DNA of 64,000 bases from Candidatus Methylomirabilota bacterium (GCA_035762565.1 DASTOJ010000206.1:3913-67912), one strand, 5' to 3'; counted from the first letter of the stretch, positions 8,246 to 34,540 are shown. The notes: generated from the sequence alone by a model not told the origin. Numbers and translations are program-made.

Positions 8246-8260
8246 GGGGGAGAGCCCGCG

Positions 8261-8671: not shown

Positions 8672-8690
8672 GACGAGGAGGAGAGGATCC

Positions 8691-9020: not shown

Positions 9021-9040
9021 CCGGGCCCGGCGCGCGCACC

Positions 9041-9070
9041 GAACGGGCCCGGTCGAGGGCCCGTTCGCAT
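9041..9070 (+). terminator. Hairpin plus short T-run between iscA and hscB (possible internal attenuator)
   Basis: GAACGGGCCC-GGTCGA-GGGCCCGTTC gives a 10-bp perfect stem, followed by GCATTTT. Confidence 0.4.
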
Positions 9071-9102
9071 TTTCGGCGGCCGGGCGAGCCTGAGGATGGC
9101 GA

Positions 9103-9753: not shown

Positions 9754-9761
9754 GAACAGGC

Positions 9762-12165: not shown

Positions 12166-12221
12166 CCCTCACACGGTCGAGTGCCCGCCTTCGAGGGCCG
12201 GCGTTGCCGGCGCAATCCTGC

Positions 12222-12280
12222 TTCTGGGGGGAGGCAGGGAGGAGCGGCCCCCCTCCGAGGCAGCGCAGCTCCCCTCCGAG
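12222..12280. repeat. GC-rich intergenic repeat, box copy 1 (TTCTGGGGGGAGGCAGGGAGGAGCG...)
   Basis: 12222-12246 matches 41801-41825 at 22 of 25 positions. It is followed by GGCCCCCCTCCGAGG. Lies between the convergent iscX and dsrH-like genes. Confidence 0.5.
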
Positions 12281-12502
12281 TCACCAGGTGATGACCTGGT
12301 CCGACTCGAAGATGCGCTCGAGAAGCGCCTCCCAGGACAGCTCGTCGGGGACGCGGCAGCGCGTCACCCCGGGCGGCGGGGTGAAATCCGGCGCACCCGG
12401 CAGCATCACGAGGGTGACGTCGTCGCCGGCGGCCTGCTGCTCACCGGCGAGGCTGAGGGCGAGCGGGTCGCCGGCCTTGAGCAGGTGGAGGACACGGGCC
12501 AT
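12281..12502 (-). CDS. DsrH/TusB-like sulfur relay protein
   Basis: 73 aa, last gene of a three-gene DsrE-F-H type operon, start overlapping the upstream stop. MARVLHLL...VTLVML pattern as in TusB/DsrH. Confidence 0.6.
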   Translation of the reverse strand: MARVLHLLKAGDPLALSLAGEQQAAGDDVTLVMLPGAPDFTPPPGVTRCRVPDELSWEALLERIFESDQVITW

Positions 12503-12858
12503 CAGAAGACGAGGAAGCGCCGGCCCTGGCGGATCAGCTTGCCGATCTGCGCCCGCGAGACGCGGACGATCGGATGGCCGCCCTCGTTCCAGTCGGGGTC
12601 GGCCGGGATCGCGTCGGTCTCGACGTGGAAGGGCACGCCCAGGCGCTTGAGGTTGTCCCGGAACTTGGCGATGTCGTCGCCGTCGACGAGGTCGTCGGTG
12701 TCGGCGTCGAGCAGGTGGACGGCCGGGCCGCGCAGCACGAAGGTGACATCGTTCTCGCCGGCGACCACACCCACGCCGATGCGCATCGCCTCGAAGGCGC
12801 GGTGCGACGCGCGCGGGTCGGCCGCGATCACCACCAGGACGGGCTGCGCGTCGGGCAC
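12502..12858 (-). CDS. DsrF/TusC-like sulfur relay protein
   Basis: 118 aa, DsrE-fold pattern (VLVVIAADP...AFEAMRIGVG...VTFVLRGPAVHLL), no Cys, as in TusC/DsrF. Middle gene of the trio. Confidence 0.65.
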   Translation of the reverse strand: MPDAQPVLVVIAADPRASHRAFEAMRIGVGVVAGENDVTFVLRGPAVHLLDADTDDLVDGDDIAKFRDNLKRLGVPFHVETDAIPADPDWNEGGHPIVRVSRAQIGKLIRQGRRFLVF

Positions 12859-18887: not shown

Positions 18888-18888
18888 G

Positions 18889-18930
18889 TCGGAGGGGCCT
18901 CGACGGCCCCCTCCGATGCCTCCCCCGGGA
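18889..18930. repeat. GC-rich hairpin repeat copy (TCGGAGGGGCC-TCGAC-GGCCCCCTCCGA) plus inverted GGGGGAGGCA box
   Basis: 11-bp stem with a one-C bulge directly after the SBP gene stop. Same architecture as 41847-41877. The flanking TGCCTCCCCC is the reverse complement of the GGGGGAGGCA box. Confidence 0.55.
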
Positions 18931-18989
18931 GGATGGCGGCGGCAAGCCGGCGCTCGAAAGCGGTCTGCAAATGGACGGCGTGCGACGCG

Positions 18990-19742
18990 ATGGGTGATCT
19001 GCTGGAGGTGCGCAAGCTCTCGCTGCAGTTTGGGGGGATCCAGGCGCTGCAGGAGGTGTCCGTCTCGGTCGCGGAGGGTGAGACGTGCGCGGTGATCGGG
19101 CCGAACGGCTCGGGGAAGACGTCGCTCTTCAACTGCATCACCGGGATCTACCAGCCCACGTCGGGATCGATCACGTTCCGCGATGAGGGGATGCTCGGGC
19201 GCTCGCCCGACTCGGTGGCCGCGCTCGGCATCGCGCGCACGTTCCAGAACCTCCGGCTCTTCCACAACATGACGGTCCTGGACAACCTCATGGTGGGACG
19301 GCATCGGCACTTCGAGCGGAGCTTCCTGGCGGTCGTGCTGCGAGGGCGCGCCGAGGAGATCCGCCACCGCCGCCGGTGCGAGGAGATCATCGAGTTCCTC
19401 GACCTGGAGCCGGTCCGCAAGACGCGGGTCGCCGACTGCCCGTACGGCGTCCAGAAGCGGGTGGAGCTGGGCAGGGCGCTGGCCACCGAGCCGGGGCTGC
19501 TGCTGCTCGACGAGCCGGTGTCGGGGCTGACCCAGGAGGAGAAGGAGGAGTTCTCCTACTGGATCCACGAGATCCGCGGGCGCTTCGCGATCACCGTGCT
19601 GCTGGTCGAGCACGATCTGCGCGTGGCCTCCCGCCTGGCCAGCCGCATGGTGGCGCTCGATCACGGCGTGAAGATCGCCGAGGGCACCCCGGCCGAGGTC
19701 CAGCGCCACCCCGACGTCATCAGGGCCTACCTCGGCGAGTAG
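18990..19742 (+). CDS. livG: Branched-chain-type ABC transporter ATP-binding protein (LivG-like)
   Basis: Walker A GPNGSGKTS, signature LSGG-like VSGLTQEEK region, Walker B LLLLDEP. Start set at MGDLLEVRKL; the track ORF begins at 18933. Confidence 0.85.
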   Translation: MGDLLEVRKLSLQFGGIQALQEVSVSVAEGETCAVIGPNGSGKTSLFNCITGIYQPTSGSITFRDEGMLGRSPDSVAALGIARTFQNLRLFHNMTVLDNLMVGRHRHFERSFLAVVLRGRAEEIRHRRRCEEIIEFLDLEPVRKTRVADCPYGVQKRVELGRALATEPGLLLLDEPVSGLTQEEKEEFSYWIHEIRGRFAITVLLVEHDLRVASRLASRMVALDHGVKIAEGTPAEVQRHPDVIRAYLGE

Positions 19743-19744
19743 GC

Positions 19745-20518
19745 ATGGCACTTCTCGAGATCACCTCGATCGAGACCCTCTACTTCGACCGGATCTACGC
19801 CTTGTTCGGCGTCTCACTCGAGGTGCAGGAGGGCGGGATCTTCACCGTGCTGGGACCGAACGGGGCGGGCAAGACGACACTGCTGCGCACGATCGCCGGC
19901 CTCCTGCGCGACCAGCCCAAGAAGGGCGAGATCCGGTTCGCGGGCCGGCGCATCGACGGCTGGCAGCCCGAGGCCATCGCGCGCCTGGGGGTCGTCTACG
20001 TTCCGGAGGACCGGGGGCTGTTCAAGGAGCTGACCGTGGCCGAGAACCTCGAGCTGGGCCTGTGGGGCCGCCGCGACCCAGGCGTCCGCGGCGACCTCGA
20101 CTTCGTCCACGCGATGTTTCCCATCCTGAAAGAGCGGGCGCGGCAGGAGGCGGAGACGCTGTCGGGTGGCGAGCAGCAGATGCTCGCGCTGGGCCGGGCG
20201 ATGCTGCGGCGGCCGCGCCTCCTGATGCTGGACGAGCCCTCGCTGGGCCTGGCCCCACGCATCGCCCGGACCGTCTACGAGGCGCTGGGCGCGATCAGCA
20301 AGACGGGCACCACGATCCTGCTCGTCGAGCAGAACGCCCGGCTGGCGCTGAGCGTGGCTCAGCGCGGCGCGATCCTCGAGGCCGGGCGCGTCGTGCTGGA
20401 AGGGACCGCCGACGAGCTGCAGGCCAACGACGACGTCCGCGAGGTCTATCTCGGCGTCGGCGGCGCCGAGACGCCCGCCCGGGGCTGGCGGCTCTATCGC
20501 AAGCGGAGGAGATGGTGA
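19745..20518 (+). CDS. livF: Branched-chain-type ABC transporter ATP-binding protein (LivF-like)
   Basis: GPNGAGKTT, LSGGEQQML and LLMLDEPSLGL motifs. ATG lies 2 nt after the livG stop. Confidence 0.85.
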   Translation: MALLEITSIETLYFDRIYALFGVSLEVQEGGIFTVLGPNGAGKTTLLRTIAGLLRDQPKKGEIRFAGRRIDGWQPEAIARLGVVYVPEDRGLFKELTVAENLELGLWGRRDPGVRGDLDFVHAMFPILKERARQEAETLSGGEQQMLALGRAMLRRPRLLMLDEPSLGLAPRIARTVYEALGAISKTGTTILLVEQNARLALSVAQRGAILEAGRVVLEGTADELQANDDVREVYLGVGGAETPARGWRLYRKRRRW

Positions 20519-22317
20519 TGGACACGCTGGCGCCCACGCTGCCCGCGATGCTGGCCCGCCAGGCCGCCACCCGCGGCGACCGGCTGGCCCTGCGGTACAA
20601 GGCGCACGGGATCTGGCACCGCGTGACGTGGCGCGCGTACGCGGACGCCGTCGACACGGTCGCCGCTGCGCTCCTGGCCTTCGGGCTGGGGCCGCAGGAC
20701 AACGTCGCGGTCATCGGGGACAACCGGCCGGAGTGGCTCTACTGCCACCTCGGGATCCAGACCGCCGGCGGGGTGACGGTGGGGGTCTATCCGACCTCGG
20801 CGCCCGAGCAGATCCGCTACCTGCTCAACCACTCGGAGGCCCGGCTGATCTTCGTCGAGAACGAGGAGCAGCTCGACAAGGTGTTGACGATCGCCGGCGA
20901 GACCCGCCTCGAGCGCCTGGTGGTGTGGGACGCCAAGGGGTTGTGGGGGTTCACCGACGATCGGGTGACGTTCTTCGAGGATTTCCTCAAGCAGGGCCTG
21001 GCTTTCGCCGAGCGCCACCCGATCGCCGTCGCCGCCCGGCGCGACGCCGTCGCCCCCGACGATACGGCGATGATCATCTACACCTCGGGCACCACCGGGC
21101 CCCCCAAGGGCGCCATGCTGTCGCACCGCTCGATCATGTGGGGCATCGGCGCCGGCGCCATGGTCAACCCGGTCGGGCCGGACGACGAGGTGATCTCGTA
21201 CCTGCCGTTCGCCCACGTCTACGAGAACCTGGTCTCGGTGTTCGGGGCCATCGGCAACGGCTATGTCGTCAACTTCGTGGAGAGCCTGGACACGCTCTTT
21301 CAGAACCTGCGCGAGGTGTCGCCCACCTACTTCGGCTCCGTCCCCCGCATCTGGGAGAAGCTGGCCTCCACCGTCGAGCTGCGCATGGCCGACTCCACCC
21401 GGGTAAAGCGCGCCGCCCATCGCGCCGCGGTCGGGATCGGGCGCCGGTGGGTGCGAGCGCGCTTCGGCGGCGGCGGCATTCCCGCCTCGCTGGCCCTGGC
21501 CTACCGGCTCGCGTACTGGAGCGTGCTGCTGCCGCTCAAGCGCCGGCTCGGCTTCGACCGGATCCGCCTGGCCGTCTGCGGCGCCGCGCCGGCCTCGCCC
21601 GAGCTGTTCGACTTCTACTGGGCGCTCGGCATCCCGCTGGTCGAGGGGTACGGATTGACGGAGTCCACCGGCGTCATCTCGGTCCAGCGCGTGGCCGCCC
21701 CGCGATTGGGGACGGTGGGCGAGCCGTTGCCGGGTATCGAGGTGCGGCTGGAGGCCGACGGCGAGATCCTCACGCGCGGGCCCCACGTGTTCAAGGGCTA
21801 CTTCAAGGACCCCGAGCTGACGGCGCAGACGATCGACGGCGAGGGCTGGCTGCACACCGGCGACGTCGGGGCGTGGGACGGCACCCACCTCAAGATCCTC
21901 GACCGCAAGAAGGACATCATCATCACCGCCGGCGGCAAGAACATCACGCCGGCCTACATCGAGAACAAGCTGAAGTTCAGCCCCTATATCCAGGACGCCG
22001 TGGTGATCGGCGACGGGCGCCGCTACCTCGCCGCGCTGATCCTCATCGACGAGGACAACGTCACCAAGTTCGCCCAGGACCACCGCATCCCGTTCACGAC
22101 CTTCCAGGACCTCACCCAAAATCCAGGGGTCGTGCGGCTGATCGGCGACGAGGTGGACAAGGTCAACCGGACGCTCTCGCAGGTGGAGACGATCAAGAAG
22201 TTCGCCCTGCTGCCGCGACGCTTCTACGAGGAGGAGGGCGACGTGACGCCCACCAAGAAGGTCAAGCGGCGGGCCCTGGAGGCCCGCTACGCCGACCTGA
22301 TCGCCTCGCTGTACTGA
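20518..22317 (+). CDS. AMP-dependent acyl-CoA synthetase/ligase (long-chain fatty acid-CoA ligase-like)
   Basis: AMP-binding motif IIYTSGTTGPPKG, GYGLTES, and TGDVG...LKILDRKKD. The ATG overlaps the livF TGA, with a GGAGGA RBS 8 nt upstream. Confidence 0.85.
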   Translation: MDTLAPTLPAMLARQAATRGDRLALRYKAHGIWHRVTWRAYADAVDTVAAALLAFGLGPQDNVAVIGDNRPEWLYCHLGIQTAGGVTVGVYPTSAPEQIRYLLNHSEARLIFVENEEQLDKVLTIAGETRLERLVVWDAKGLWGFTDDRVTFFEDFLKQGLAFAERHPIAVAARRDAVAPDDTAMIIYTSGTTGPPKGAMLSHRSIMWGIGAGAMVNPVGPDDEVISYLPFAHVYENLVSVFGAIGNGYVVNFVESLDTLFQNLREVSPTYFGSVPRIWEKLASTVELRMADSTRVKRAAHRAAVGIGRRWVRARFGGGGIPASLALAYRLAYWSVLLPLKRRLGFDRIRLAVCGAAPASPELFDFYWALGIPLVEGYGLTESTGVISVQRVAAPRLGTVGEPLPGIEVRLEADGEILTRGPHVFKGYFKDPELTAQTIDGEGWLHTGDVGAWDGTHLKILDRKKDIIITAGGKNITPAYIENKLKFSPYIQDAVVIGDGRRYLAALILIDEDNVTKFAQDHRIPFTTFQDLTQNPGVVRLIGDEVDKVNRTLSQVETIKKFALLPRRFYEEEGDVTPTKKVKRRALEARYADLIASLY

Positions 22318-22325
22318 GGGAGCCG

Positions 22326-23306
22326 GTGGACCTCGTCGAGTCGTATCGCGACGACCTGAGATTCGCGCGCAAGCCGGTCACGCGCGGGCTGCTCACGCTG
22401 CTGCTGGCGGCGCTGGCCGTGTTCCCGTGGGTGGCGCCGGACTACATGGTGTTCCTGGCCACCCTGGTCGCCCTCTACTCGATCGGCGTCATGGGTCAGA
22501 ACATCCTCATCGGCTACACGGGCCAGATCTCGTTCGGCCAGGCCGGCTTCCTCGCCATCGGCGCCTTCACCTTCGGGCATCTGCGGATCTGGGGGGCGCC
22601 CTTCCCGCTCGCGCTGCTGGGGGCCGGCCTGCTGGCCGCGGTCGCCGGCGTGGTGGTCGGCTTCCCCTCGCTCCGGCTCAAGGGGCCGTATCTGTCGATC
22701 GCCACACTCGGCTTCGGCGTCGCCGTGTACCAGGTCTTCGTCAACTACGAAGCACTCTCGGGCGGCCGCTCGGGGCTGGCCATCGCCAAGCTGACGCCGA
22801 TGTTCGGCCTGTCGAAGCTCCGCTGGGAGTACTACGTCTACGTGCTGCTGCTGGCCGCCTTCACCCTGGTCACGGCCAACCTGGTCTCGTCCTACGTGGG
22901 GCGCGCCTTCATCGCCATCCGCGACTCCGACATCGCAGCCGAGGTCAACGGCGTGAACCTCACGCGCTACAAGCTGCTGGCATTCGCCGTCTCCTCCTTC
23001 TACACGGGCGTGCACGGCGCCCTCTACGCGCAGGTGCTCGGGCACATCGAGCCCCAGATCTTCAACGTGCTGGAATCCATCACCCTGTTCGTGGCGGTCA
23101 TCATCGGCGGGCTGGCCTCCATCGAGGGCTCGATCCTGGGCGCCGCCTTCGTGCTGATCGTGCCCAAGGTCTTCTCCGAGTTCCGCGAGATGGTGCCGGT
23201 GGTCTACGGCGTGGCGATCCTGCTCGTGCTGATCTTCGAGCCCCTCGGACTGTTCGGGCGATGGCTGAAGACACGCCTCTACTTCCAGCTCTGGCCCTTC
23301 CGCTAG
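22326..23306 (+). CDS. livM: Branched-chain-type ABC transporter permease (LivM-like)
   Basis: Polytopic, with GQNILIGYTGQISFGQAGF and IIGGLASIEGSILGA motifs. GTG start after a GAGGGAG RBS. Confidence 0.85.
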   Translation: MDLVESYRDDLRFARKPVTRGLLTLLLAALAVFPWVAPDYMVFLATLVALYSIGVMGQNILIGYTGQISFGQAGFLAIGAFTFGHLRIWGAPFPLALLGAGLLAAVAGVVVGFPSLRLKGPYLSIATLGFGVAVYQVFVNYEALSGGRSGLAIAKLTPMFGLSKLRWEYYVYVLLLAAFTLVTANLVSSYVGRAFIAIRDSDIAAEVNGVNLTRYKLLAFAVSSFYTGVHGALYAQVLGHIEPQIFNVLESITLFVAVIIGGLASIEGSILGAAFVLIVPKVFSEFREMVPVVYGVAILLVLIFEPLGLFGRWLKTRLYFQLWPFR

Positions 23307-23372
23307 CCGGTCGCCGATAATGGCGACCGGCGCGCGTGCCGGGGGGCGGCGAGCGCGGGCGGAGGGTTCGTG

Positions 23373-24254
23373 ATGGAGAGGTGGCTGCAGTATGGGTTGA
23401 CGGGGTTGTCGGCGGGGAGCTTGTACGCGATGGTGGCGCTGGGGATCGTGCTGATCTACCGGTCCACGCGGGTGCTGAACTTCGCCCATGGCGACGTCGC
23501 CACGGTGGCCACGTTCGTGGCGTTCACGCTGCTCTCGCGCGGGTTCTCCTTCCCGGTCGCCCTGCTCGGCAGCCTGGCGACCGGCGCGGTCGTCGGGACC
23601 GGGTTCTACTTCGTGGTCCTCGTCCGGGCCCAGCGGCGCGGCGCCAACCTGCTCGGCATGGTGATCCTCACCCTCGGCCTGGCCCTGATGATCCAGGGCG
23701 TGGTGGTCTACCTGTGGGGCGCCGAGCCGGTCTCGCTGCCGTTCCCCATCTCCGACACGAAGACGTACGCGCTGGGCGGCGTGGTCGTGAGCCAGCTGTC
23801 GCTGGCCACGATGGCGGCCGGGGTTGCCGGCTCGCTGCTGCTGTACCTGCTCGTGCAGAAGACGCGCCTGGGCCTGGCCATGCGCGCGACCTCCGAGAAC
23901 GTCATGGCCGCCCAGACGCTCGGGATCCCGACCCGGCGGGTCCTGGGCGTGTCGTGGGCGGCGGCGTCCGCGCTCGGGGTGGTGGCGGGGATCTTCCTGG
24001 CTCCCGCGCTGCTGCTCGACCCCTTCTTCATGCTGGATCCCTTCCTCAAAGGCTTCGCCGCCGCGGTGCTGGGCGGTTTGAACAGCCTGCCCGGGGCCGT
24101 GGTCGGCGCGCTGCTCCTGGGCGTGGCGGAGTCCTGGACCGGTGCCTACCTGACCATCCAGTTCAAGAACACGCTCGCCTTCGTGATCATCATCCTGGTG
24201 CTGCTCGTCCGTCCTGAAGGTCTGCTGGGCAAGGAATTCAAGGAGCGGGTGTAG
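23373..24254 (+). CDS. livH: Branched-chain-type ABC transporter permease (LivH-like)
   Basis: GLSAGSLYAMVALGIVLIYRSTRVLNFAHGD signature, polytopic. A GTG at 23370 is an alternative start. Confidence 0.85.
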   Translation: MERWLQYGLTGLSAGSLYAMVALGIVLIYRSTRVLNFAHGDVATVATFVAFTLLSRGFSFPVALLGSLATGAVVGTGFYFVVLVRAQRRGANLLGMVILTLGLALMIQGVVVYLWGAEPVSLPFPISDTKTYALGGVVVSQLSLATMAAGVAGSLLLYLLVQKTRLGLAMRATSENVMAAQTLGIPTRRVLGVSWAAASALGVVAGIFLAPALLLDPFFMLDPFLKGFAAAVLGGLNSLPGAVVGALLLGVAESWTGAYLTIQFKNTLAFVIIILVLLVRPEGLLGKEFKERV

Positions 24255-24270
24255 CCGGGCGGCCGGGACG

Positions 24271-24831
24271 TCAGACGAAGATGGCGGCGACGTCGATCGG
24301 GTCGTCCGGGAACGCCAGCGTGGCGACGGCGTCGCCGGCGACCGCCTGCCGGTGCTCCCGATATCGAGGGCCGGAAGGCGAGCGGTACACGTGGACGGTG
24401 TCGGAGTTCGCGTCGACGACCCAGTATTCCCCGATGCCGGCCAGCGCGTAGAGGGCGAGCTTGACGGTCCGGTCGTATTCGAGCGAGGTGTCCGCGACCT
24501 CGATGACGAGCAGGACGTCGTGCGTCGTGGCGCCGGCGCGCCGGTAGGAGCGAGCGCGGAGCAGTGCCAGGTCGGGCTGGGGCAGGGACCGCGGGGGCAC
24601 GCGAATGGGGCCCTGAACGCGCACCCGAGCCCGATCGCCGGCGAGCCTCACGAACACGTGCGTCAGGTTCGTCACGAGCGCCGCGTGCGGATCACCGATC
24701 GGGCTCATCTCGACGATCTCGCCCTCGATGAGCTCGACCCGGTCGTCCTGCTTGAGGATGCCCGTCTCCACCATGCGCTCGTACTCCTCGATGGTGAAGC
24801 GCCGCCGTGGTCGTTCGACGCGGGCTGCCAT
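24271..24831 (-). CDS. Uma2-family (DUF820) putative endonuclease
   Basis: FTIEEYERMVETGIL...RVELIEGEIVEMSP...PDLAL...VIEVADTSLEYDR..K..LYA..GI.EYWVVD is the PD-(D/E)xK Uma2 pattern. Start set at MAARVERP with a GGAGG RBS. Confidence 0.8.
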   Translation of the reverse strand: MAARVERPRRRFTIEEYERMVETGILKQDDRVELIEGEIVEMSPIGDPHAALVTNLTHVFVRLAGDRARVRVQGPIRVPPRSLPQPDLALLRARSYRRAGATTHDVLLVIEVADTSLEYDRTVKLALYALAGIGEYWVVDANSDTVHVYRSPSGPRYREHRQAVAGDAVATLAFPDDPIDVAAIFV

Positions 24832-24997
24832 GCCGAACCTCCGCCGCCAGTATACGCGGGACCCATGCCGATGCCGGGAGGCTACGCCGCTCGTGAGGCG
24901 CCCCGAAAAGACGCGGGATGGATACACCGTTGCCCGCGTCCCGCGCATCGTTTAAACTCACTGAACAGCAATTCATTCGACGGTTGGAGAGACCCTG

Positions 24998-25753
24998 ATG
25001 GAACGCCCGATCGCTTACGACAAGCTCGCGCGCGAGGACCGCTTCGTGCGGATGCGCACGCGCGACGTCGGCGCCCTGAAGATCGAGCAGGGGCTGCCGC
25101 CGTTTCCCGACCTGACCAGCCGCGAGTCGATGCGCGACCGCGTGCACGGCATCCTGGTCGGCGAGCTGCAAGCGATGGAGGGCGCCGGGCGCACGGTCTG
25201 CGACTTCCCCGACGCCCCGTGGGAGTTCACCATGGACATGGCCCGCCAGGTCTGGGACGAGTCGCGCCACGTGGAGACGTACCTGGGTCTGCTCGACCAC
25301 CTCGGCGGGCGCGTCGGCGAGTTCCCGGAGACGACGCTGCTCTGGCGGTGCGCGTGCGCGGAGGACGCCGCCGCCCGTGTGGCCGGCGTCAACCGCGGCC
25401 TCGAAGGCCTGGCCTGCGACGTCTTCAACCAGCTCATCCACATCGCCCGGAAGATCGGCGACCCCGTCATCGAGCGCTCGGTGGACTACGTGCTGGCCGA
25501 CGAGATCACCCACGTCCGCATGGGCTCGCGCTGGCTCAACGAGCTGACCAGGGGCGAGCCGGAGCGGCGGCGGCGGGCCGTCGAGTTCCAGGACTCCATC
25601 GACGAGCGCTTCAACCTCGGGGGTCAGCGCCGGGACGGGCACCACGACGACGTGCCGATCTCGATCGCCAAGGACGCTCGGCGGCTGGCGGGATTCACCG
25701 AAGAGGAGATCGAGCGGCTCGTCAAGAGCACGCAGCGCTCCCAGGTGTACTAG
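24998..25753 (+). CDS. Ferritin-like di-iron protein (DUF455-like)
   Basis: Di-iron carboxylate signature: GELQAME, WDESRH, GLEGLACD and ADEITH (E...ExxH twice). Ends at a TAG that is in frame with the next gene. Confidence 0.7.
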   Translation: MERPIAYDKLAREDRFVRMRTRDVGALKIEQGLPPFPDLTSRESMRDRVHGILVGELQAMEGAGRTVCDFPDAPWEFTMDMARQVWDESRHVETYLGLLDHLGGRVGEFPETTLLWRCACAEDAAARVAGVNRGLEGLACDVFNQLIHIARKIGDPVIERSVDYVLADEITHVRMGSRWLNELTRGEPERRRRAVEFQDSIDERFNLGGQRRDGHHDDVPISIAKDARRLAGFTEEEIERLVKSTQRSQVY

Positions 25754-25837
25754 CTGGCTGCCCACCCGCTCGCCGGCCACTTCTCCGTCGACCTCGCCGC
25801 CAGGCGTATCCGCCACTACCGCTACATCGAGGAGCGG

Positions 25838-26731
25838 ATGATGCGCGTGCTCGGAGGCTGGATCGCGCTCACGCCCGAGCTCCCCGCCAAGCTCCTGTTC
25901 GGCCGGCACGTCTGGGACTGCGCGCAGCACGCCGACCTCTGGGGCCGCCGCCTGCCCGAGCTGCGCGCGCCCGCCCAGCAGTCGGAGCCGGCCGGTCCCG
26001 CCGTGGTGGCGTGGCTGGATCTCATGGAGACGGCCGAGGCGCCCGGCCAGACGGTCGAGCGGGTGACGGCGATTTACCGGGTGCTCAAGCCTCACCTGGC
26101 GACCGTCTACGAGCGCCATCTGGCCGTGGCCAACCCCGTGTACGAGCCGCCCACGCGTCGCATCCTGACCCGCGCGATCGACGAGGAGCGCCGCCACGGG
26201 GCCGCCGGCGCCGTCGTGCTCGACCGGCTGACCGCGGGCGACCGCGCGCTGGCCGAGCGCGCGCACGCCTGGGAGCGGCGGCTGCTCGAGGCGCTCGAGG
26301 CCGCCGGCGGCGTGACCGGTGACGTCGCGCCACCGCTGATCTCGCCGGCGGCCGTCGCGCCCGCCGCCGCCGTCGTCGCCCAGGATCTGGTACCACCGCC
26401 GGCGCCGTTCGAGCCGCGAGCCGCGCTGGGCGAGCTCGCCGCGCCGCTGGAGGCCCACCTTCGGGCGCTGGCGCGCGCAGACGTCGACGCCGTGCGCCGG
26501 GAGGTGGCCGCCGGCGCCGGGCCGGAGGTGGCCGGCGCCTACGCGGCGCTGCCGGGGCCGTTCGAGCGGGCCGAGGTCGTCGGCTGCGCGCGCATCGGCG
26601 TGCAGCGTGTGGTCAAGCTGCGGCTGCAGGGGCCGCGCGGTCGCGTGCTGCTGCAGGAGCGCTGGCTGCCGTCGGCGGACGGCTGGCGCCTCGCGGCGGT
26701 CGAGGTCACGGGCACCGAGCCGGCGCCGTAG
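25838..26731 (+). CDS. Divergent ferritin-like domain protein with Pro/Ala linker and C-terminal small beta-rich (NTF2-like?) domain; start unresolved
   Basis: Paralogous to the upstream protein (HVWDCAQH vs QVWDESRH; IDEERRH vs ADEITH). First ATG is at 25838/25841 with a GAGGAG RBS. The 84 nt upstream are in frame, coding-like and appear to contain the helix-1 Glu (YIEERMM). Confidence 0.6.
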   Translation: MMRVLGGWIALTPELPAKLLFGRHVWDCAQHADLWGRRLPELRAPAQQSEPAGPAVVAWLDLMETAEAPGQTVERVTAIYRVLKPHLATVYERHLAVANPVYEPPTRRILTRAIDEERRHGAAGAVVLDRLTAGDRALAERAHAWERRLLEALEAAGGVTGDVAPPLISPAAVAPAAAVVAQDLVPPPAPFEPRAALGELAAPLEAHLRALARADVDAVRREVAAGAGPEVAGAYAALPGPFERAEVVGCARIGVQRVVKLRLQGPRGRVLLQERWLPSADGWRLAAVEVTGTEPAP

Positions 26732-28074
26732 TGTTCCGCGCCGTCCTCGTCGCCAACCGCGGCGAGATCGCCCGCCGCGTCTTCCGCGCCTGCCGCCGGC
26801 TCGGCGTCGGTACCGTCGCCGTGTACTCCGAGGCGGACCGCGGCGCCCCTCACGTGCGCGAGGCCGACCGCAGCGTGCTGGTGGGGCCCCCGCCGGCGCG
26901 CGAGAGCTACCTGGACGTCGAGCGCCTCCTGGCAGCCGCGCGCGAGAGCGGCGCCGACGCCGTGCACCCGGGCTACGGGTTCCTCTCCGAGAACTGGCGC
27001 TTCGCCGAGGCCTGCGCCCGGGCGGGGCTGGCGTTCATCGGCCCGACCGCCGAGGCGATCCGCGCGATGGGAGACAAGGCCGAGGCGCGCCGGATCATGG
27101 CCGGCGCCGGCGTCCCGACGGTGCCGGGCAGCCCGGGCCCCCTTGCCGACGCCACGGAGGCGGAGGCGCAGGCCGCGGGCATCGGCTTTCCGCTGATCCT
27201 CAAGGCGGCGGGGGGCGGCGGGGGCATCGGGCTGGCGCGGGTCGAGCGCGCCGCCGATCTTCCTGCGGCCTTCGCCACCGCCACCCGCCGGACCCGGTCG
27301 GCATTCGGCAACGCGGCGGTCTACCTGGAGCGCTACCTGGAGCGGCCCCGTCACGTCGAGGTGCAGGTCTTCGGCGACGCGCACGGATCCGTCGTGCACC
27401 TGCACGAGCGCGAGTGCTCGATCCAGCGCCGCCACCAGAAGCTCATCGAGGAATCGCCGGCGCCCGGGCTCGACCCGGCGACCAAGCGCGGGCTCGTCGA
27501 GGCCGCGGTGGCCGGTGCCCGCGCCATCGGCTACGTCAACGCGGGCACGCTGGAGTTCCTGGTCGACGCCGCCGGCCGGTTCTACTTCATCGAGATGAAC
27601 ACCCGCATCCAGGTGGAGCATCCGGTGACCGAGGAGGTGACGGGCCTCGACCTCGTGGTCGAGCAGCTGCGGGTGGCCGCCGGCGAGCGGCTGGCGTGGC
27701 GTCAGGAGGCCATCGTCCAGCGCGGGGCGGCGGTGGAGTGTCGGGTGTACGCGGAGGATCCGGACAAGAACTTCCTGCCGTCGCCGGGCACGCTCGCGCG
27801 GCTGGACCTGCCGGGCGGCGAGGGGATGCGTGTCGAGTCCGGCGTGGAGGCGGGCGGCGTCGTGTCCGTCCACTACGACCCGCTGCTGTTCAAGCTGGTC
27901 GCCCACGGCGGCGGGCGCGCCGAGGCGCTGGCGCGGATGCGGGCCGGGCTGGACGCGACGGTGGTGGAGGGCGTCCGCACGACGATCCCATTCTTGAGGC
28001 GGGCGCTCGACCACCCCGACGTCCGCCGCGGCGCGCTGCACACGCAGATGGTGGACCAGGGCGCCTTCCGCTAA
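26731..28074 (+). CDS. accC: Biotin carboxylase subunit of an acyl-CoA carboxylase
   Basis: VLVANRGEIARRV, ATP-grasp GGGGIG, EMNTRIQVEHPVTE. The GTG start overlaps the upstream TAG by 1 nt. Confidence 0.9.
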   Translation: MFRAVLVANRGEIARRVFRACRRLGVGTVAVYSEADRGAPHVREADRSVLVGPPPARESYLDVERLLAAARESGADAVHPGYGFLSENWRFAEACARAGLAFIGPTAEAIRAMGDKAEARRIMAGAGVPTVPGSPGPLADATEAEAQAAGIGFPLILKAAGGGGGIGLARVERAADLPAAFATATRRTRSAFGNAAVYLERYLERPRHVEVQVFGDAHGSVVHLHERECSIQRRHQKLIEESPAPGLDPATKRGLVEAAVAGARAIGYVNAGTLEFLVDAAGRFYFIEMNTRIQVEHPVTEEVTGLDLVVEQLRVAAGERLAWRQEAIVQRGAAVECRVYAEDPDKNFLPSPGTLARLDLPGGEGMRVESGVEAGGVVSVHYDPLLFKLVAHGGGRAEALARMRAGLDATVVEGVRTTIPFLRRALDHPDVRRGALHTQMVDQGAFR

Positions 28075-28103
28075 ACTCTCGGCTCGACAAGGAGCGTTCC
28101 CAC

Positions 28104-28319
28104 ATGCCGGAGGAGATCAAGGCTCACATCACGGGCGTCGTCTTCCAGATCCCCACCCGGCAGGGCGACCGGGTCGGGGCGGGCGATCCCGTCATCGTGC
28201 TCGAGTCGATGAAGATGGAGATCCCGGTCGAGGCGCCGCGGGCGGGCGTGGTCAAGGAGATCCGGGTCCAGGAGGGCCAGACCGTGCAGGAGGGCGACAC
28301 CGTCGCCGTCCTGGACTGA
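28104..28319 (+). CDS. Biotin carboxyl carrier / biotinyl domain protein (71 aa)
   Basis: Biotinylation motif VLESMKMEIPV. AAGGAG RBS 9 nt upstream. Confidence 0.85.
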   Translation: MPEEIKAHITGVVFQIPTRQGDRVGAGDPVIVLESMKMEIPVEAPRAGVVKEIRVQEGQTVQEGDTVAVLD

Positions 28320-28329
28320 GGAGCCGCCG

Positions 28330-28839
28330 ATGAGCACGGCGATGGTGCGCGACCTGTACGTCTATCACCGCTGGGCCAACCGCGCGCTGTTCGACGTGGC
28401 CGCCGCGCTGGGCGAGGAGGCGTGCGGACGGGAGGCCGGCACGCACTTCAGCGTGCCCACGCTCGCCCGGATGTTCGCGCACGTCTACGGCGCCGACGCG
28501 GTCTGGCTCAACCGCTGGAAAAGCGCGCCGCCCTCGGTCCCGCCGTATCCCGCGCTGGCCTCCATGGCCGAGGTGCGCGCGCGGTGGGACCCGGTCGAGG
28601 CCGAGCAGCGGGCGTTCGTGGACGGGCTGAAGGACGCCGATCTGGAGCGCGTGGTCGAGTACAAGAACACCCAGGGCCGGGCGTTCCGGGCGCCGCTCGG
28701 CGTCCTGCTCCAGCACGTCGCCAACCACGCGACGCACCATCGCAGCGAGATCGCCACGATGCTCACGCTGGTCAGTGGCTCGCCGCCCGACACGGGCATC
28801 AGCACCTGGGAGCTCATCCGGACCGGCCAGCAGCGCTGA
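28330..28839 (+). CDS. DinB-family (four-helix bundle, metal-binding) protein
   Basis: YHRWANRALF near the N-terminus and HVANHATHHRSEI near the C-terminus, typical of the DinB/DUF664 superfamily. Confidence 0.7.
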   Translation: MSTAMVRDLYVYHRWANRALFDVAAALGEEACGREAGTHFSVPTLARMFAHVYGADAVWLNRWKSAPPSVPPYPALASMAEVRARWDPVEAEQRAFVDGLKDADLERVVEYKNTQGRAFRAPLGVLLQHVANHATHHRSEIATMLTLVSGSPPDTGISTWELIRTGQQR

Positions 28840-28841
28840 CG

Positions 28842-30395
28842 ATGGACATGAAGGCGCACGCCGAGGACCTCGCCCGGCGGCGCGCCCGCGCGCGCGGGAT
28901 GGGCGGGGCCGAGGCGGTCGCCCGCCAGCACGCGGCGGGCAAGCTCACGGCCCGCGAGCGGATCGCGCGGCTGTTCGACGAGGACACCTTTACCGAGATC
29001 GGCGTCCACGCCACCCACGCCGGCATCGCGCCCGACCTCGCCGGGCGCGAGACGCCCGCCGACGGCGTGGTGACCGGCTTTGGCAAGGTCGACGGCCGAC
29101 TGGCCGCGGTGATCGCCTACGACTTCACGGTGATGGCCGGCTCGATGGGCCGCACCGCCGAGACCAAGTGCAACCGCGCCCGCGAGCTCGCCTACACCAA
29201 GCGCATCCCGATGATCTGGCTGATCGACTCCGCCGGCGCCCGCATCCAGGAGGCGATCGGCTCGCGCTGGTTCGCGGGCGCCGGCCAGCTCTTCCGGGAG
29301 GAGTCGATCTGGTCCGGCGTGGTGCCGCAGGTGGCGGCGATGATGGGCCCCGGCGCCGCCGGCACCGCCTACATCCCCGCGCTCGCCGACTTCGTGCCGA
29401 TGGTGAAGGGGACCAGCCACATGGCCCTGGGCGGCCCCCCGCTGGTGAAGGCGGTGGTGGGCGAGGACGTCACGGCCGAGGAGCTGGGCGGCTCGAAGGT
29501 CCACTGCGAGATCTCCGGCGTCGGCGACCTGGAAGTCGAGGACGACGACGCGTGCATCGCGGTCATCAAGGAGTACCTGTCCTACTTTCCCTCCCACAAC
29601 CAGGCGTCGCCGCCGGTCATCGCCTGCGACGATCCGGTGGACCGCCGCGACGACGCGCTGCTGAGCCTCCTGCCCGACAGCCCCCGGCGGGCCTACGACG
29701 TCGGGAAGGTGATCCGCGCCGTCGTGGACCACGGCCGGATGCTCGAGCTCAAGCCGGGCTGGGCCCGGAACATCGTCACCGCGCTGGCCCGCCTCGACGG
29801 CCACCCGGTCGGCGTCGTGGCCAACCAGCCGATGGTCCTGGGCGGCGCCCTGGATCTCGACGCCGCCGACAAGGCCGCCCGCTTCATCATGCTCTGCGAC
29901 GCCTTCGGCCTCCCGCTCGTCTTCCTCCAGGACGTCCCCGGCTTCATGGTGGGCAGCAAGGTCGAGCGCGCCGGCATCATCCGCCACGGGGCCAAGATGC
30001 TCTACGCGGTCAGCGAGGCCACGGTGCCCAAGCTGACCGTCGTCATGCGCAAGGCCTACGGGGCGGGGTACTTCGTCATGTGCGGGCGGGCGTACGAGCC
30101 CGATCTGATCGTGGCGTGGCCGACGGCGGAGATCAGCGTGATGGGTCCGGAAGGGGGGACGAACATCGTCTATCGCAAGGAGATCGCCGCCGCCGACGAT
30201 CCAGACGCCGAGCGCGCCCGCCGCGTCGAAGACTTCCGCGCGCTGATCTCGCCGTACATCGCGGCCGGTGCGGCGCTGGTCGACGACGTCATCGACCCCC
30301 GGGATACCCGCCCCACCCTCGTCCGCGCCCTCGAGATGGCCAGGACCAAGCGCGTGGACCGGCCGTGGCGCAAGCACGGCGTCATGCCGGTGTAG
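28842..30395 (+). CDS. Acyl-CoA carboxylase carboxyltransferase subunit (PccB/AccD5-like)
   Basis: GKLTARERIARLFD, DFTVMAGSMG, GGARIQE-like SAGARIQEA, and GPGAAGTAYIPAL. 517 aa, with both N- and C-carboxyltransferase halves. Confidence 0.9.
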   Translation: MDMKAHAEDLARRRARARGMGGAEAVARQHAAGKLTARERIARLFDEDTFTEIGVHATHAGIAPDLAGRETPADGVVTGFGKVDGRLAAVIAYDFTVMAGSMGRTAETKCNRARELAYTKRIPMIWLIDSAGARIQEAIGSRWFAGAGQLFREESIWSGVVPQVAAMMGPGAAGTAYIPALADFVPMVKGTSHMALGGPPLVKAVVGEDVTAEELGGSKVHCEISGVGDLEVEDDDACIAVIKEYLSYFPSHNQASPPVIACDDPVDRRDDALLSLLPDSPRRAYDVGKVIRAVVDHGRMLELKPGWARNIVTALARLDGHPVGVVANQPMVLGGALDLDAADKAARFIMLCDAFGLPLVFLQDVPGFMVGSKVERAGIIRHGAKMLYAVSEATVPKLTVVMRKAYGAGYFVMCGRAYEPDLIVAWPTAEISVMGPEGGTNIVYRKEIAAADDPDAERARRVEDFRALISPYIAAGAALVDDVIDPRDTRPTLVRALEMARTKRVDRPWRKHGVMPV

Positions 30396-30415
30396 GCGAC
30401 GAGCGACCCCACGAC

Positions 30416-31654
30416 GTGAGCGTTTCCTCCGCCGGCGACGGCGTCGGCTGGCTGGCGGTCCCGGGCGTGTTGCGCGAGCCCGACTATCGCCGGCTGTGGG
30501 CCTCCGGCCTCTTCGTCAATGTCGCCCGCTGGATGGACCTGGTGACGCTGGGGTGGCTGGCGCTGGAGCTGACGGGCTCGCCGTTCATGGTCGGAGTGGC
30601 CGCCTTCGCCCGCTCGGCACCCCTGATGGTCGTCGGCCCCTTCGCCGGAATCGTCGCCGACCGGATGCCGCGCGGCGGCGTCCTGGTCGTCGCGCAGGCG
30701 ACCGGGGTCGCGACGGCGCTCGCGCTGGCGGCGCTGTTCGGCACCGGCCGCGGCGGCTACCGGACACTGGTCGCGCTCGAGGTCGTGTTCGGACTGGTGT
30801 GGGCGCTCGACTTCCCGGCTCGGAGGACCTCGCTGTACGCCCTGCTCGGGGCCTCGCGCGTGGCCCAGGCCGTGTCGCTGGAGACCGTGTCGATGCAGAT
30901 CGCCAAGATCCTCGGGCCGCTCGCCGCTGGATTCTGCCTGGCCCGCCTGGGCCCGGAGGCGAGCTTCGCGCTGATGGCGGCGACCTACGCGGGTGGCCTC
31001 GCGGCGTCGAGCGGCCTCCACCGGCGGCTCGGCGGCCCCGCCGGCACGACGGCGCCGACGGTGGCCGCGAGCATGCGGGCGGGGCTCCGGGCGGCCTGGG
31101 CGAGTCCGACCGTGCGCGCGGTCCTGCTCGTCACGGTCGCGATGAACACGCTGTTCTTCCCCTACCAGCACATGCTGCCGGTCTTCGCCCGCGACGTGCT
31201 GGCGGTGGGACCGGTGGCGCTCGGGGGTCTCGTCGCCGCCGACGGCTTCGGCGCTCTGGTCGGCGCGCTGGTGATCGCCTCGCGCCGCGGCCAGCTTCCC
31301 CACCGCGCGATCTTTGGTGGGGCGGTGCTCCTGGCGCCGGTGCTGCTGGTGGGGCTGGCCGGACTGCGCTGGTTTCCCGCGTGCGTCGTGCTGCTGGTCC
31401 TGATCGGGGCGGCCGAGTCCGGGTTCGCGGCGATGCAGAGCACCCTCGTGCTGCTCGCGGCGCCCGACCGGGTGCGCGGCGGGGCGATGGGCATCCTCTC
31501 GGCGTGTATCGGCACCCAGCCGCTCGGTACGCTGGCCATCGGCGTCCTGGCCGCCGGCGCCGGCGCGCCGGCGGCCTTCGCCGTGAACGCCGCCACCGCG
31601 CTGCTCGTCATCGTGCCGCTGGCGTGGCCGCTGGTGCGCGGGCGCCCGGACTGA
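30416..31654 (+). CDS. MFS transporter (EntS/MFS_3-like)
   Basis: About 12 predicted hydrophobic helices. REPDYRRLWASGLFVNVARWM and GPFAGIVADRMPRG are typical of this MFS subfamily. GTG start. Confidence 0.8.
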   Translation: MSVSSAGDGVGWLAVPGVLREPDYRRLWASGLFVNVARWMDLVTLGWLALELTGSPFMVGVAAFARSAPLMVVGPFAGIVADRMPRGGVLVVAQATGVATALALAALFGTGRGGYRTLVALEVVFGLVWALDFPARRTSLYALLGASRVAQAVSLETVSMQIAKILGPLAAGFCLARLGPEASFALMAATYAGGLAASSGLHRRLGGPAGTTAPTVAASMRAGLRAAWASPTVRAVLLVTVAMNTLFFPYQHMLPVFARDVLAVGPVALGGLVAADGFGALVGALVIASRRGQLPHRAIFGGAVLLAPVLLVGLAGLRWFPACVVLLVLIGAAESGFAAMQSTLVLLAAPDRVRGGAMGILSACIGTQPLGTLAIGVLAAGAGAPAAFAVNAATALLVIVPLAWPLVRGRPD

Positions 31655-31885
31655 CGCCGCCGGCACTCCGATCCTTGCCGATCGTCAGGCACTCTTCTAT
31701 GCTCGGGGCCGGAGTTGCTGGTCCCGTGACGTGAACGGGAGGACCGCACGGCGAAGTCGCAGGCCGGGCCCGCGAAGAGGGTGCAAAGGGCGGCCCGATG
31801 CCCCTGAAGGGCGCGAGGTCAGCAGCCCATCCGCCGAGGCCGGATCCCGGAGCCCGCCGGCGCGAGCGGCCCGGAGTAACCGAGG

Positions 31886-32860
31886 ATGCCCAGCTGGCGA
31901 GCGCGCGGCCTGACGCTGGCGATCCGGATGCTCATGCGTCGCGCCGACTGGGGCGATCCGCCGACGCTGGTGCGACGGGCTCGTCGCCTCTTCGGGGCCC
32001 CGAATCCGCTCCAGTGGCTTCGCACGCGCGGAGTTCGAATCCGGCCCGTCAGCAAGGGAACTGTGCGCGGAGAGTGGGTTGCCGCCGACCAATCGGACCC
32101 AGATCTCGGCGTCGTCCTCTATCTGCACGGCGGGGGGTACGTCGCCGGCTCGCCCGCGACCCATCGCCCGATCACCGCTGCGCTCGCGCGGCTGGCACGA
32201 CGGCGCGTGTTCAGCCTGGACTACCGGCTCGCTCCCGAGCACCGGTTTCCCGCCGCGCTGGACGACGCTGCGGCCGCCTACCGCTGGCTGCTGGAGCAGG
32301 GGACTCCCGCGTCCTCGCTGGTGCTCGCCGGCGACTCCGCCGGCGGCGGCCTCGTGCTCGCCACCCTCCTGAAAGTCCGGGAAGAGGGATGGCCGGCCCC
32401 GGCCTGCGCTGCCTGCTTCTCGCCGTGGACCGACCTGGCCGCCACCGGCGAGTCCGCGCGTGAGAACGACGGCCGCTGCGCGATGCTCCGGCCGGACAGC
32501 ATCAGCGCCTTCGCCCGCCTCTATCTCGGTGACACCCCGCCGCAGCACCCGTACGCCTCCCCGGTCTACGCCGACCTCGGTGGCCTACCGCCACTGCTCC
32601 TGCAAGTCGGATCCGACGAGCTTCTGCTCGACGACACCCGCCGCATTCACGCCAAGATCCAGGCCGCCGGCGGCCCCAGCACCCTCCAGATCTTCGACGG
32701 CGTCTTCCACGGCTGGCACGTACTCGCCCCTCTCCTCCCCGAATCCCGCCAAGCCCTCCACCAAGCCGCCCACTTCCTCAACACCCCCCACGCCCCACCC
32801 ACAAGGCCAGGTCGACCGATGCCATCGGCCCAAGCGCCACCCCGTGCAGGGACAAAGTGA
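31886..32860 (+). CDS. Alpha/beta hydrolase (hormone-sensitive-lipase-like esterase)
   Basis: Oxyanion HGGGY and nucleophile elbow GDSAGG motifs, with a C-terminal DGVFHGW His region. Confidence 0.85.
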   Translation: MPSWRARGLTLAIRMLMRRADWGDPPTLVRRARRLFGAPNPLQWLRTRGVRIRPVSKGTVRGEWVAADQSDPDLGVVLYLHGGGYVAGSPATHRPITAALARLARRRVFSLDYRLAPEHRFPAALDDAAAAYRWLLEQGTPASSLVLAGDSAGGGLVLATLLKVREEGWPAPACAACFSPWTDLAATGESARENDGRCAMLRPDSISAFARLYLGDTPPQHPYASPVYADLGGLPPLLLQVGSDELLLDDTRRIHAKIQAAGGPSTLQIFDGVFHGWHVLAPLLPESRQALHQAAHFLNTPHAPPTRPGRPMPSAQAPPRAGTK

Positions 32861-32884
32861 GCGTTTCACGAGACCTCGCGGGCA

Positions 32885-33036
32885 GGCCCGTGGCGGGCGG
32901 CCCCCCGGGTGGGGTCGCTCGACCCGTTTCCCGCAAGGCAGATTTCACCCCGAGCGTTGATGGGGAACCGAGCGCTGTGACGAAGTCCGGCCCCGTGGTC
33001 GAGCGACCCCACCCGGGGGGCCGCCCGCCACGGGCC
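32885..33036. repeat. 152-bp palindromic element: perfect 40-bp inverted repeats flanking a 72-nt centre
   Basis: 32885-32924 (GGCCCGTGGCGGGCGGCCCCCCGGGTGGGGTCGCTCGACC) is the exact reverse complement of 32997-33036, checked base by base. Lies between the convergent hydrolase and rpoD genes. Confidence 0.8.
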
Positions 33037-33043
33037 GGCTCGG

Positions 33044-34540
33044 CTAATTCTCGATGAAGGCGCGGAGATTGCGCCCGCGGAGGGGATGGCGCAGCTTGCG
33101 GAGCGCCTTGGCCTCGATCTGCCGGATACGCTCACGCGTGACGGCGAAGCGCTTGCCCACCTCTTCCAGCGTATGCTCGCCCTCTTCGCCGATGCCGAAG
33201 CGCAGGCGCAGGATCTCCTTCTCCTTGGGCGAGAGCGTCGCCAGGGCCCGCTCGACCTGGCTGGTGAGGTCCTGGCTCATCAGCGAGTCGTTGGGCGAGC
33301 CGGCGCTCTTGTCCTCGAGGAAGTCCCCCAGCTCGGAGTCCTCGCCGATCGGGGTCTCCAGCGACAGCGGCTTGCGCGACGATTCCAGGATCAACCGCAC
33401 CTTCTTCGCCGGCACACCGGTCCGCTGGGCCAGCTCCTCGGGCGTGGGCTCGCGGCCCATCTCGTTGATCATGTTCCGGTTCACCCGGGAGATGCGGTTG
33501 AGCGTCTCCACCATGTGCACCGGGATCCGGATCGTTCGCGAATGGTCGGCAATCGCCCGGGTGATCGCCTGCCGGATCCACCAGGTGGCGTAGGTCGAGA
33601 ACTTGAACCCGCGCCGGTACTGGAACCGATCCACGGCCTTCATGAGGCCGATGTTGCCCTCCTGGACGAGGTCGAGCAGCGAGAGGTCGCTGCCCAGGTA
33701 GCGCTTGGCCACCGAGACGACCAGACGCAGATTGGCCTCCATCAGCTCCCGCTTGGCCTGGCGCACGGTGCGGTCGCTCTCGTCGATCTGCTGGATCAGC
33801 TGGATCAGCTGCCGCCTCGGGAGCCCGGCCTCCGCCTCCAGCCGCCTCAGCTCGCGGGTGCCCGCCGTGGTCCGGGACCGGCGCACCTCGTCGGCCATCT
33901 CATGCAGTCGCTTGCAGTGACGGCGCACCCGGCCCGCCATGTCGTCGATCAGGGCCGGCTTGAGCGGCATCTCGGCGACCGTCTTCTGGATCGCCTCGCG
34001 CTGGGTCGCGATCAACCGCAGTACGTTGGCTCGCGAGGCGGCGGAGCGCCGCCGGTCGTCGAGCGACGCCTCCAGCCGCTGGATCTTGTGCTCGAAACGC
34101 CGGATCCGGCTGAAGGCGAGCAGGACGGGCCGGATCTCCTTGGCCTCCAGCTCGCCGCCCTCCGGCAGGACGATGACGTCGTCGGCGGCGATGTCGCCGC
34201 GACGGAGCCGGTCGCCCACGTCGAGCAGCACGCTCACGGCCATCGGAATGCCGGCAAGTCCCCGGCGCAGCGCGATCTGGCCGACTTCGATCCTCCGCCC
34301 GATCTGCACTTCCTGCTGGGCAGTTAGGAGGGGGACCTTGCCGATCTCCTTCAGATACAGACGGACGGGGTCCTCGCCCTTGGCCGGGAGCGGGGTGAGG
34401 ACTTCCTCAGAGACAGGCGGCAACTCCTCCTCGGCGTCCTCGGCGAGGACCGGCGCTCCGTGCTCCTCCTCGGTCGCCAGCACCGCCGGGACTGTCTCGG
34501 TCGCGTCGATCGTCGTATTCGCGGTCTCTCGGAATGTCAT
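33044..34540 (-). CDS. rpoD: RNA polymerase primary sigma factor
   Basis: Regions 1.2 to 4.2 are present ([11 protein letters not shown]; [12 protein letters not shown]; [18 protein letters not shown]; [30 protein letters not shown]). Confidence 0.95.

Follow-up and report, generated by a model that had tools for sequence, protein, structure and literature searches.

Several described oxygenases combine a catalytic di-iron subunit of ferritin-like fold with an adjacent degenerate paralog, among them PaaA and PaaC of phenylacetyl-CoA 1,2-epoxidase and the alpha and beta subunits of monooxygenases. Cyanobacterial aldehyde-deformylating oxygenase (ADO) consists of a single ferritin-like di-iron domain, works alone with acyl-ACP reductase (AAR) and uses an external ferredoxin. 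Three-subunit acetyl-/propionyl-CoA carboxylases are built from a biotin carboxylase (BC), a biotin carboxyl carrier protein (BCCP) and a carboxyltransferase (CT), and the mycobacterial biotin/lipoyl carrier of 71 amino acids (aa; NF004547, PRK05889) stands alone and can sit without a BC or CT of its own. The locus analysed here brings counterparts of these systems together in a 64,000-nucleotide (nt) stretch of DNA (the window; GCA_035762565.1 DASTOJ010000206.1:3913-67912) with a G+C content of 71%. The stretch lies on contig C206 of a metagenome-assembled genome (5.2 Mb, 330 contigs, 91.5% complete) from the Rokubacteria (Methylomirabilota), which are abundant, uncultured soil bacteria. It carries a string of seven genes (Table 1): G1, a member of the DUF455 family; G2, its degenerate paralog; the biotin carboxylase AccC; a BCCP; a DinB-family protein; a CT; and an MFS transporter. 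DUF455 is widespread, from bacteria to plants and fungi, and literature searches found no functional study of DUF455, PF04305 or COG2833.

The locus is best explained, with a probability of roughly 0.6, as a co-oriented and probably co-transcribed string of separable units that have gathered in one syntenic slot. By analogy with PaaA and PaaC, the first unit would be a two-subunit ferritin-like oxidase in which G2 is the non-catalytic partner of G1. Such an enzyme would activate O2 and oxidise some substrate with electrons from a reductase encoded elsewhere. The second unit would be an ordinary three-subunit short-chain acyl-CoA carboxylase of the acetyl-/propionyl-CoA type, composed of AccC, the 71-aa BCCP and the PccB-type CT and additional to AccBCD, with the DinB protein as its probable accessory. 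The third would be the MFS transporter, a presumed recent add-on in the window's genus. The units do not depend on one another, as each occurs without the others.

This separability is seen in the slot itself, defined as the interval between the liv-fadD operon and the principal sigma gene, which was fetched in 51 genomes of the order Rokubacteriales and scored for each gene by tblastn. BCCP is present in all 51 loci, G1 and G2 in 46 each, AccC in 40, DinB in 37 (as one to three tandem copies), CT in 22 and MFS in four, the last confined to the window's genus and one other. The loci fall into 13 patterns of presence and absence, and only three hold all seven genes. The order G1-G2-(AccC)-BCCP-(DinB)-(CT) recurs across Rokubacteriales, and the sigma gene is adjacent in every complete locus.

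Losses run in both directions. Genomes G059 (92% complete) and G139 (98%) have livH, AccC-BCCP-DinB-CT and sigma in succession, with no G1 or G2 anywhere in either genome, and in G020 and G117 (2.3-2.4 Mb, 97-98% complete) only the 71-aa BCCP is left beside the sigma gene. Wherever G1/G2 are missing, BCCP is still in place and 75-83% identical, so its constancy is tied to the slot beside sigma and not to G1/G2. Conversely, BCCP is the sole biotin-enzyme gene beside G1/G2 in five loci, three of which also have DinB. A deletion is marked directly in G018, where a 37-residue remnant of AccC survives.

The junctions bear out the co-oriented, closely packed genes reported in a preliminary description, which was made from the sequence alone and whose gene list and junction distances proved exact. 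In the window, the TAG of G2 and the GTG of AccC have one base in common, and the following gaps are 29 nt (AccC-BCCP), 10 nt (BCCP-DinB), 2 nt (DinB-CT) and 20 nt (CT-MFS). Most loci of the window's family have -4 to +7 nt between the G2 stop and the AccC start, against about 350-370 nt in the other family, and in relatives livH often ends 7-89 nt 5' of G1, or of AccC where G1/G2 are missing. The tightness of the G2-AccC junction across one family makes co-transcription likely. This spacing is compatible with a single transcript from liv-fadD through G1-G2-AccC-BCCP-DinB to CT, whose genes could plausibly share an acyl-CoA theme. Rfam and promoter/terminator scans of 24000-33200 found no promoter, terminator or Rfam signal.

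Outside this setting, G1 and G2 travel as a pair. Within the phylum, G1 orthologs are confined to two families of Rokubacteriales, and none was found in 46 sampled genomes from other families. Beyond the order, 566 relatives emerged from a scan limited to one genome per species, and the best 80 of them, all from Acidimicrobiia, were examined as loci. The G2 homologs found outside the order, in Acidimicrobiia and other lineages, are 222-232 aa long and adjoin G1 homologs in either order, mostly with 4-nt overlaps, and about 12 proteins of 400-485 aa are single-chain g2::g1 fusions. Their adjacency, the natural fusions and their paralogy point jointly to a heterodimer, and G1, as catalytic subunit, and G2, as degenerate one, are accordingly predicted to associate in the pattern of PaaA/PaaC or of monooxygenase alpha and beta subunits. 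G1-G2 is the one unit that stays together across phyla, with G2 the only constant partner of G1.

The biotin genes do not follow the pair. Homologs of AccC, BCCP, DinB, CT and MFS are absent within 8 kb of all 85 non-Rokubacterial G1-G2 loci (the 80 from Acidimicrobiia and five others), and with four further loci included, none of 89 outside the order has biotin genes within about 7-9 kb. At those four loci the neighbours are a Rieske oxygenase, a CoA-transferase, amidohydrolases, or AdoMet decarboxylase with spermidine synthase. The association of DUF455 with a carboxylase that had been proposed thus stands as a gene order that recurs across Rokubacteriales and fails as a general co-occurrence, since its parts are lost independently within the order and none of the 85 loci outside it has the biotin genes.

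In 77 of the 80 Acidimicrobiia loci, a g2-like gene and a g1-like gene are followed by a gene whose conserved 187-aa product matches nothing in Pfam (L067:8867-9430 and 76 other loci within L069-L148); this protein could be a third component of the DUF455 system of Acidimicrobiia. It was considered as a counterpart of the NTF2-like tail of G2 and ruled out by an hhalign probability of 0.3%. A separate locus of a related genome, L022 (G040:C12:68000-84000), holds three DUF455 paralogs that are 34-39% identical to G1, together with a G2-like gene, at about 1450-12722. The surrounding genes are lasso/RiPP-like (ABC exporter, NTP_transf_5, HPr-kinase-like, 2OG-Fe(II) oxygenase and asparagine-synthase homolog), a setting that would suit a peptide-tailoring oxygenase function for some members of DUF455.

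G1 belongs to DUF455 by both profile score and ligand pattern, with a PF04305 match that covers profile positions 51-247 only. Residues E56, E88, H91, E136, E169 and H172 do not vary across 58 diverse homologs of 42-92% identity, and the resulting pattern E/ExxH/E/ExxH is predicted to form a complete carboxylate-bridged di-iron site. The same set has many invariant arginines, so the substrate of G1/G2 is probably anionic. The AlphaFold2 model of G1 is a ferritin-like bundle (pLDDT 87.9) whose closest solved folds are ADO, PaaA/PaaC, toluene-4-monooxygenase (T4moH), R2lox and bacterioferritins, with TM-scores of about 0.5. There is no close structure, and a sequence search of the PDB returned no match. 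A GGAGAG Shine-Dalgarno sequence lies 6 nt 5' of the ATG. Across Rokubacteriales the orthologs are 78-96% identical to G1, with a median of 82%, as against 76% for the adjacent principal sigma-70, 69% for AccC and 59% for DinB. Conservation above that of the sigma factor suggests that G1 has an important role of its own.

The boundary of G2 required revision. The preliminary description had recognised a real gene and its exact 3' junction, and the start lies 84 nt further 5' than the first ATG from which the gene had been read. The TAG of G1 occupies 25751-25753 and the first ATG of G2 stands at 25838. The amino-acid sequence encoded by the 28 codons between them is conserved in relatives and at the N-termini of homologs from other phyla. 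In the AlphaFold2 model of the 325-aa form (pLDDT 95.4), helix 1 spans residues 12-39 and crosses the annotated ATG at residue 29, so that half of the helix is encoded by the codons before it. From this conservation and the span of helix 1, G2 is assigned to 25754-26731, with no gap after G1. It most likely begins at the CTG directly 3' of the G1 TAG, as the stretch between that TAG and 25838 has no ATG, GTG or TTG; an AGGTG sits 8 nt 5' of the candidate CTG.

The sequence CAGGTGTAC-TAG-CTG is nucleotide-identical in 11 of 12 loci from the window's genus and its sister genus, and in the rest of Rokubacteriales G2 starts with ATG, GTG or TTG, three to six codons 5' of a conserved LAGH motif. 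The strict conservation of TAG-CTG in the window's genus favours CTG initiation there. Read-through of the G1 stop codon into G2 was considered as a general mechanism and ruled out, because G1 and G2 are in frame with each other at only 24 of 50 loci, the G1 stop is TAG, TGA or TAA, and canonical starts are used outside the window's genus. Within that genus alone, read-through of the TAG to give a 577-aa G1-G2 chain is possible, with the CTG start preferred. G2 is a gene separate from G1.

Although too divergent for the DUF455 model of Pfam, the G2 family is related to the G1 family with an hhalign probability of 93.6% (E 2e-7). Aligned in this way, G2 retains the second ExxH in full and, of the first, the His; equivalents of two of the six ligands, E88 and E136, are missing. 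The degenerate DUF455 part comprises residues 1-193 and the NTF2-like part about 215-325; in the model these correspond to a ferritin-like bundle at residues 12-183 and an alpha+beta NTF2-like domain at 221-322. Foldseek searches with the model gave matches, all weak, to PaaC, the beta subunits of ToMO/T4mo, CADD and AtzH/KSI-type NTF2 proteins. The relation to the G1 family and the resemblance of the C-terminal domain to NTF2-like structures uphold the label 'ferritin-like/NTF2-like' under which the gene was originally listed.

Like PaaA and PaaC, G1 and G2 are a putative catalytic di-iron subunit and an adjacent degenerate paralog. The likeness to PaaA/PaaC and T4mo/ToMO is at the level of fold only (TM-score about 0.5, 12-19% identity), and Pfam and NCBIfam searches place neither protein in the PaaA/PaaC family. 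G2 further differs in its NTF2-like domain, and among the neighbouring genes (AccC, BCCP, DinB, CT, MFS, Uma2 and liv/fadD) there are no PaaB-, PaaD- or PaaE-type partners and no reductase. The best structural match of G1 is cyanobacterial ADO (4tw3, 4kvq, 2oc5; E 6e-4, TM-score 0.51-0.57, 16-18% identity), which is of similar size and has the same single di-iron domain. Whereas ADO works alone with AAR, G1 is always accompanied by G2, and no gene for AAR turned up in the string.

The carboxylase half of the string has the three components and domains of the acetyl-/propionyl-CoA enzymes (7w5u, 1vrg, 1x0u; 12S 1on3; Streptomyces coelicolor PccB 1xnv), including the BC catalytic motifs and the MKM biotinylation motif. 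AccC is a biotin carboxylase by its three domains and by the motifs GDK, KA..GGGG, RHVEVQ, QRRHQK, EMNTRIQVEH and ECRVYAEDP in its translation. The carrier motif ESMKME is found in all 53 BCCP orthologs, and this protein shares its length and stand-alone form with the mycobacterial carrier, from which it differs in usually being encoded between BC and CT genes. The CT is a full-length crotonase-type protein of the PccB/AccD5 group that aligns end to end with the solved chains. Ranking by bit score against those chains (7w5u ACC beta 510 bits, 1on3 12S 501, 1vrg 497 and S. coelicolor PccB 457, with MCC, GCC and LCC chains at 240-300) assigns it to the acetyl-/propionyl-CoA beta-subunit group (PccB/12S/ACC-beta), as far as sequence similarity defines that class.

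Several features set the locus apart from these relatives. A DinB gene lies between BCCP and CT, and CT and AccC are often lost from the locus in other genomes. The glycine-rich BC loop (27220-27245) reads GGGGIGL, and GGGGIG(M/L) in every ortholog at the locus, in place of the GGGG[KR]GM of the two biotin carboxylase paralogs that this genome also encodes. In the CT motif RKAYGAGYF, the residue after (G/A)(G/A)Y is F in 20 of 24 orthologs and Y in the other four, an aromatic residue at a position taken by L in 12S and by I in 1vrg, 7w5u and 1x0u; strict propionyl-CoA enzymes (PccB) presumably have Asp there.

Elsewhere the genome encodes canonical AccB and AccC on contig C43, AccD on C58, a fused BC-BCCP on C100 and at least three further CT genes; AccA was not found in this 91.5% complete assembly. 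The canonical AccB, AccC and AccD rule out AccC-BCCP-CT as the housekeeping acetyl-CoA carboxylase (ACC), and to that extent confirm the earlier view that the carboxylase is not a housekeeping enzyme. AccC-BCCP-CT would then be an extra short-chain acyl-CoA carboxylase, its substrate class being suggested by the affinities of its CT. The DinB protein, the least conserved of the string, matches its family profiles and keeps H13, H51 and H136 in about 44 of 47 orthologs. In loci L024, L038, L042, L044, L045 and L051, DinB is duplicated or triplicated in tandem, with BCCP on one side and CT or sigma on the other.

Several observations weigh against treating the units as mere neighbours. The G2 stop and AccC start overlap or lie at most 7 nt apart in most loci of the window's family, and G1/G2 are wedged between fadD and the carboxylase, which would suit a common acyl-CoA substrate. 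G1 is also better conserved than its neighbours, which is unusual in a passenger gene, and no G1-G2 pair was seen in Rokubacteriales away from this slot. Such points favour a single lineage-specific pathway, in which Liv would import an organic acid, the embedded FadD-like ligase would activate it, G1/G2 would oxidise the CoA thioester in a PaaAC- or BoxB-like manner and AccC-BCCP-CT would carboxylate it, with DinB and the NTF2-like tail processing an intermediate. Considered unlikely, though by no means negligible, this pathway would account for the shared orientation of all the genes, the livH-G1 gaps of just 7-81 nt in several relatives, the tight G2-AccC junctions and an arrangement kept across the order. 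It would also fit the nearest solved folds, ADO and PaaAC, which act on acyl chains or acyl-CoA, and the genes for CoA-transferase, enoyl-CoA hydratase and AMP-ligase that lie close to some of the distant G1-G2 pairs. It is at odds with the absence of CT from 29 of the 51 loci and of AccC from 11, with the carboxylase that stands without G1/G2 in two genomes and with the G1/G2 that have only BCCP in others. Moreover, the string has no reductase, ferredoxin or downstream ring- or chain-processing enzymes, and the 89 pairs outside the order, lacking biotin genes, have inconsistent neighbours (spermidine synthase, amidohydrolases, Rieske oxygenase, the 187-aa protein). All Rokubacterial loci are kin and one ancestral arrangement suffices for them, so their co-occurrence is not independent evidence of coupling; a single ancestral insertion of G1-G2 into the slot can explain the pattern without any functional link. 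More doubtful again is the bolder proposal that G1/G2 are heterodimeric di-iron oxygenases of a new class, with an organic acid activated by CoA as their substrate, and form in Rokubacteria, with Liv-FadD and AccC-BCCP-CT, a new aerobic 'activate, oxidise, carboxylate' route in which the NTF2-like tail and DinB handle a reactive intermediate. The single seven-gene carboxylation/oxidation pathway of the preliminary description is borne out only in part, by the shared orientation, tight packing and recurring order of its genes; three complete loci in 51, 13 patterns, modules found apart and a CT of an ordinary group speak against it.

Two narrower explanations take single genes of the string as their clue. 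The MFS_3/EntS-like transporter that closes it, and the DUF455 paralogs in the lasso/RiPP-like cluster L022, could point to a small biosynthetic cluster in which the carboxylase gives an extender unit and the MFS protein exports the metabolite. With MFS in only four of the 51 loci, no synthase, ligase or tailoring set in the string, and a G1 conserved like a core gene rather than a gene of secondary metabolism, this is very improbable, and the small exported metabolite offered earlier as an option is retained only as a minor rival. Slightly less credible still is a role for G1/G2 in modifying, repairing or making biotin or the biotinylated 71-aa BCCP. That role would explain why BCCP, found in every locus and in five as the only biotin-enzyme gene beside G1/G2, is their one invariant neighbour, yet BCCP stays where they are absent, and in other phyla no BCCP is encoded near the G1-G2 pairs. 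The persistence of BCCP without them in G059, G139, G020 and G117 led to its rejection as a functional partner of G1/G2.

The chief interest of the locus lies in the highly conserved, uncharacterised G1/G2 pair. Its minimal conserved unit can be defined as a putatively catalytic DUF455 subunit with an unannotated degenerate partner that has no Pfam model, which makes it a target for biochemistry. The link to biotin carboxylase is the synteny of one lineage and no general rule, a caution against over-reading it as a new carboxylation pathway. The present analysis adds the two-way separability test, the exact boundary of G2 and models of both subunits.

Table 1. Coordinates, strand and supporting profile matches of the genes of the string and of its flanks, in positions of the window
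Feature	Positions	Strand	Evidence
G1, DUF455-family ferritin-like protein, 251 aa	24998-25753	+	PF04305 98 bits vs cut-off 34.3
G2, degenerate DUF455 paralog with NTF2-like domain, 325 aa	25754-26731	+	no Pfam match
AccC, biotin carboxylase, 447 aa	26731-28074	+	Biotin_carb_N, CPSase_L_D2, Biotin_carb_C; NF006367 602 bits vs 597
BCCP, stand-alone biotin carboxyl carrier, 71 aa	28104-28319	+	PF00364; NF004547 equivalog 85 bits vs 75
DinB-family four-helix metalloprotein, 169 aa	28330-28839	+	PF05163 56.7 bits, PF12867 47.2 bits
CT, PccB-type carboxyltransferase, 517 aa	28842-30395	+	Carboxyl_trans PF01039, positions 1-493, 558 bits
MFS_3 (EntS-like) transporter, 412 aa	30416-31654	+	PF05977 115 bits, PF07690
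livG-livF-fadD(AMP-binding)-livM-livH uptake/activation operon, upstream	18888-24254	+	Pfam
Uma2-family gene between livH and G1	24271-24948	-	PF05685 122 bits
Principal sigma-70 gene, fixed downstream anchor of the slot	33044-34540	-	Sigma70 r1_2, r2, r3, r4

Genes were called from third-position G+C plots, lists of open reading frames and profile searches against Pfam and NCBIfam, and by these measures the seven plus-strand genes are real and lie at the coordinates in Table 1. Downstream of the string, Pfam identifies an alpha/beta hydrolase, the principal sigma-70 gene on the minus strand and an ACT-malic enzyme.

Some related loci depart from the usual layout. In L040, L041, L056, L059 and L060, 3.0-5.4 kb of extra DNA lies between AccC and BCCP. 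In L023 (G012:C1:488000-504000) the whole string is present and split into many frame-shifted pieces; that genome is assembled in four contigs and is 62% complete, so long-read indel errors are likelier than real pseudogenes. In the window, a Uma2 gene (putative restriction endonuclease fold) stands between livH and G1. None of about 50 related loci has it at that position, and Uma2 therefore appears to be a recent insertion that has parted G1 from the liv-fadD operon.

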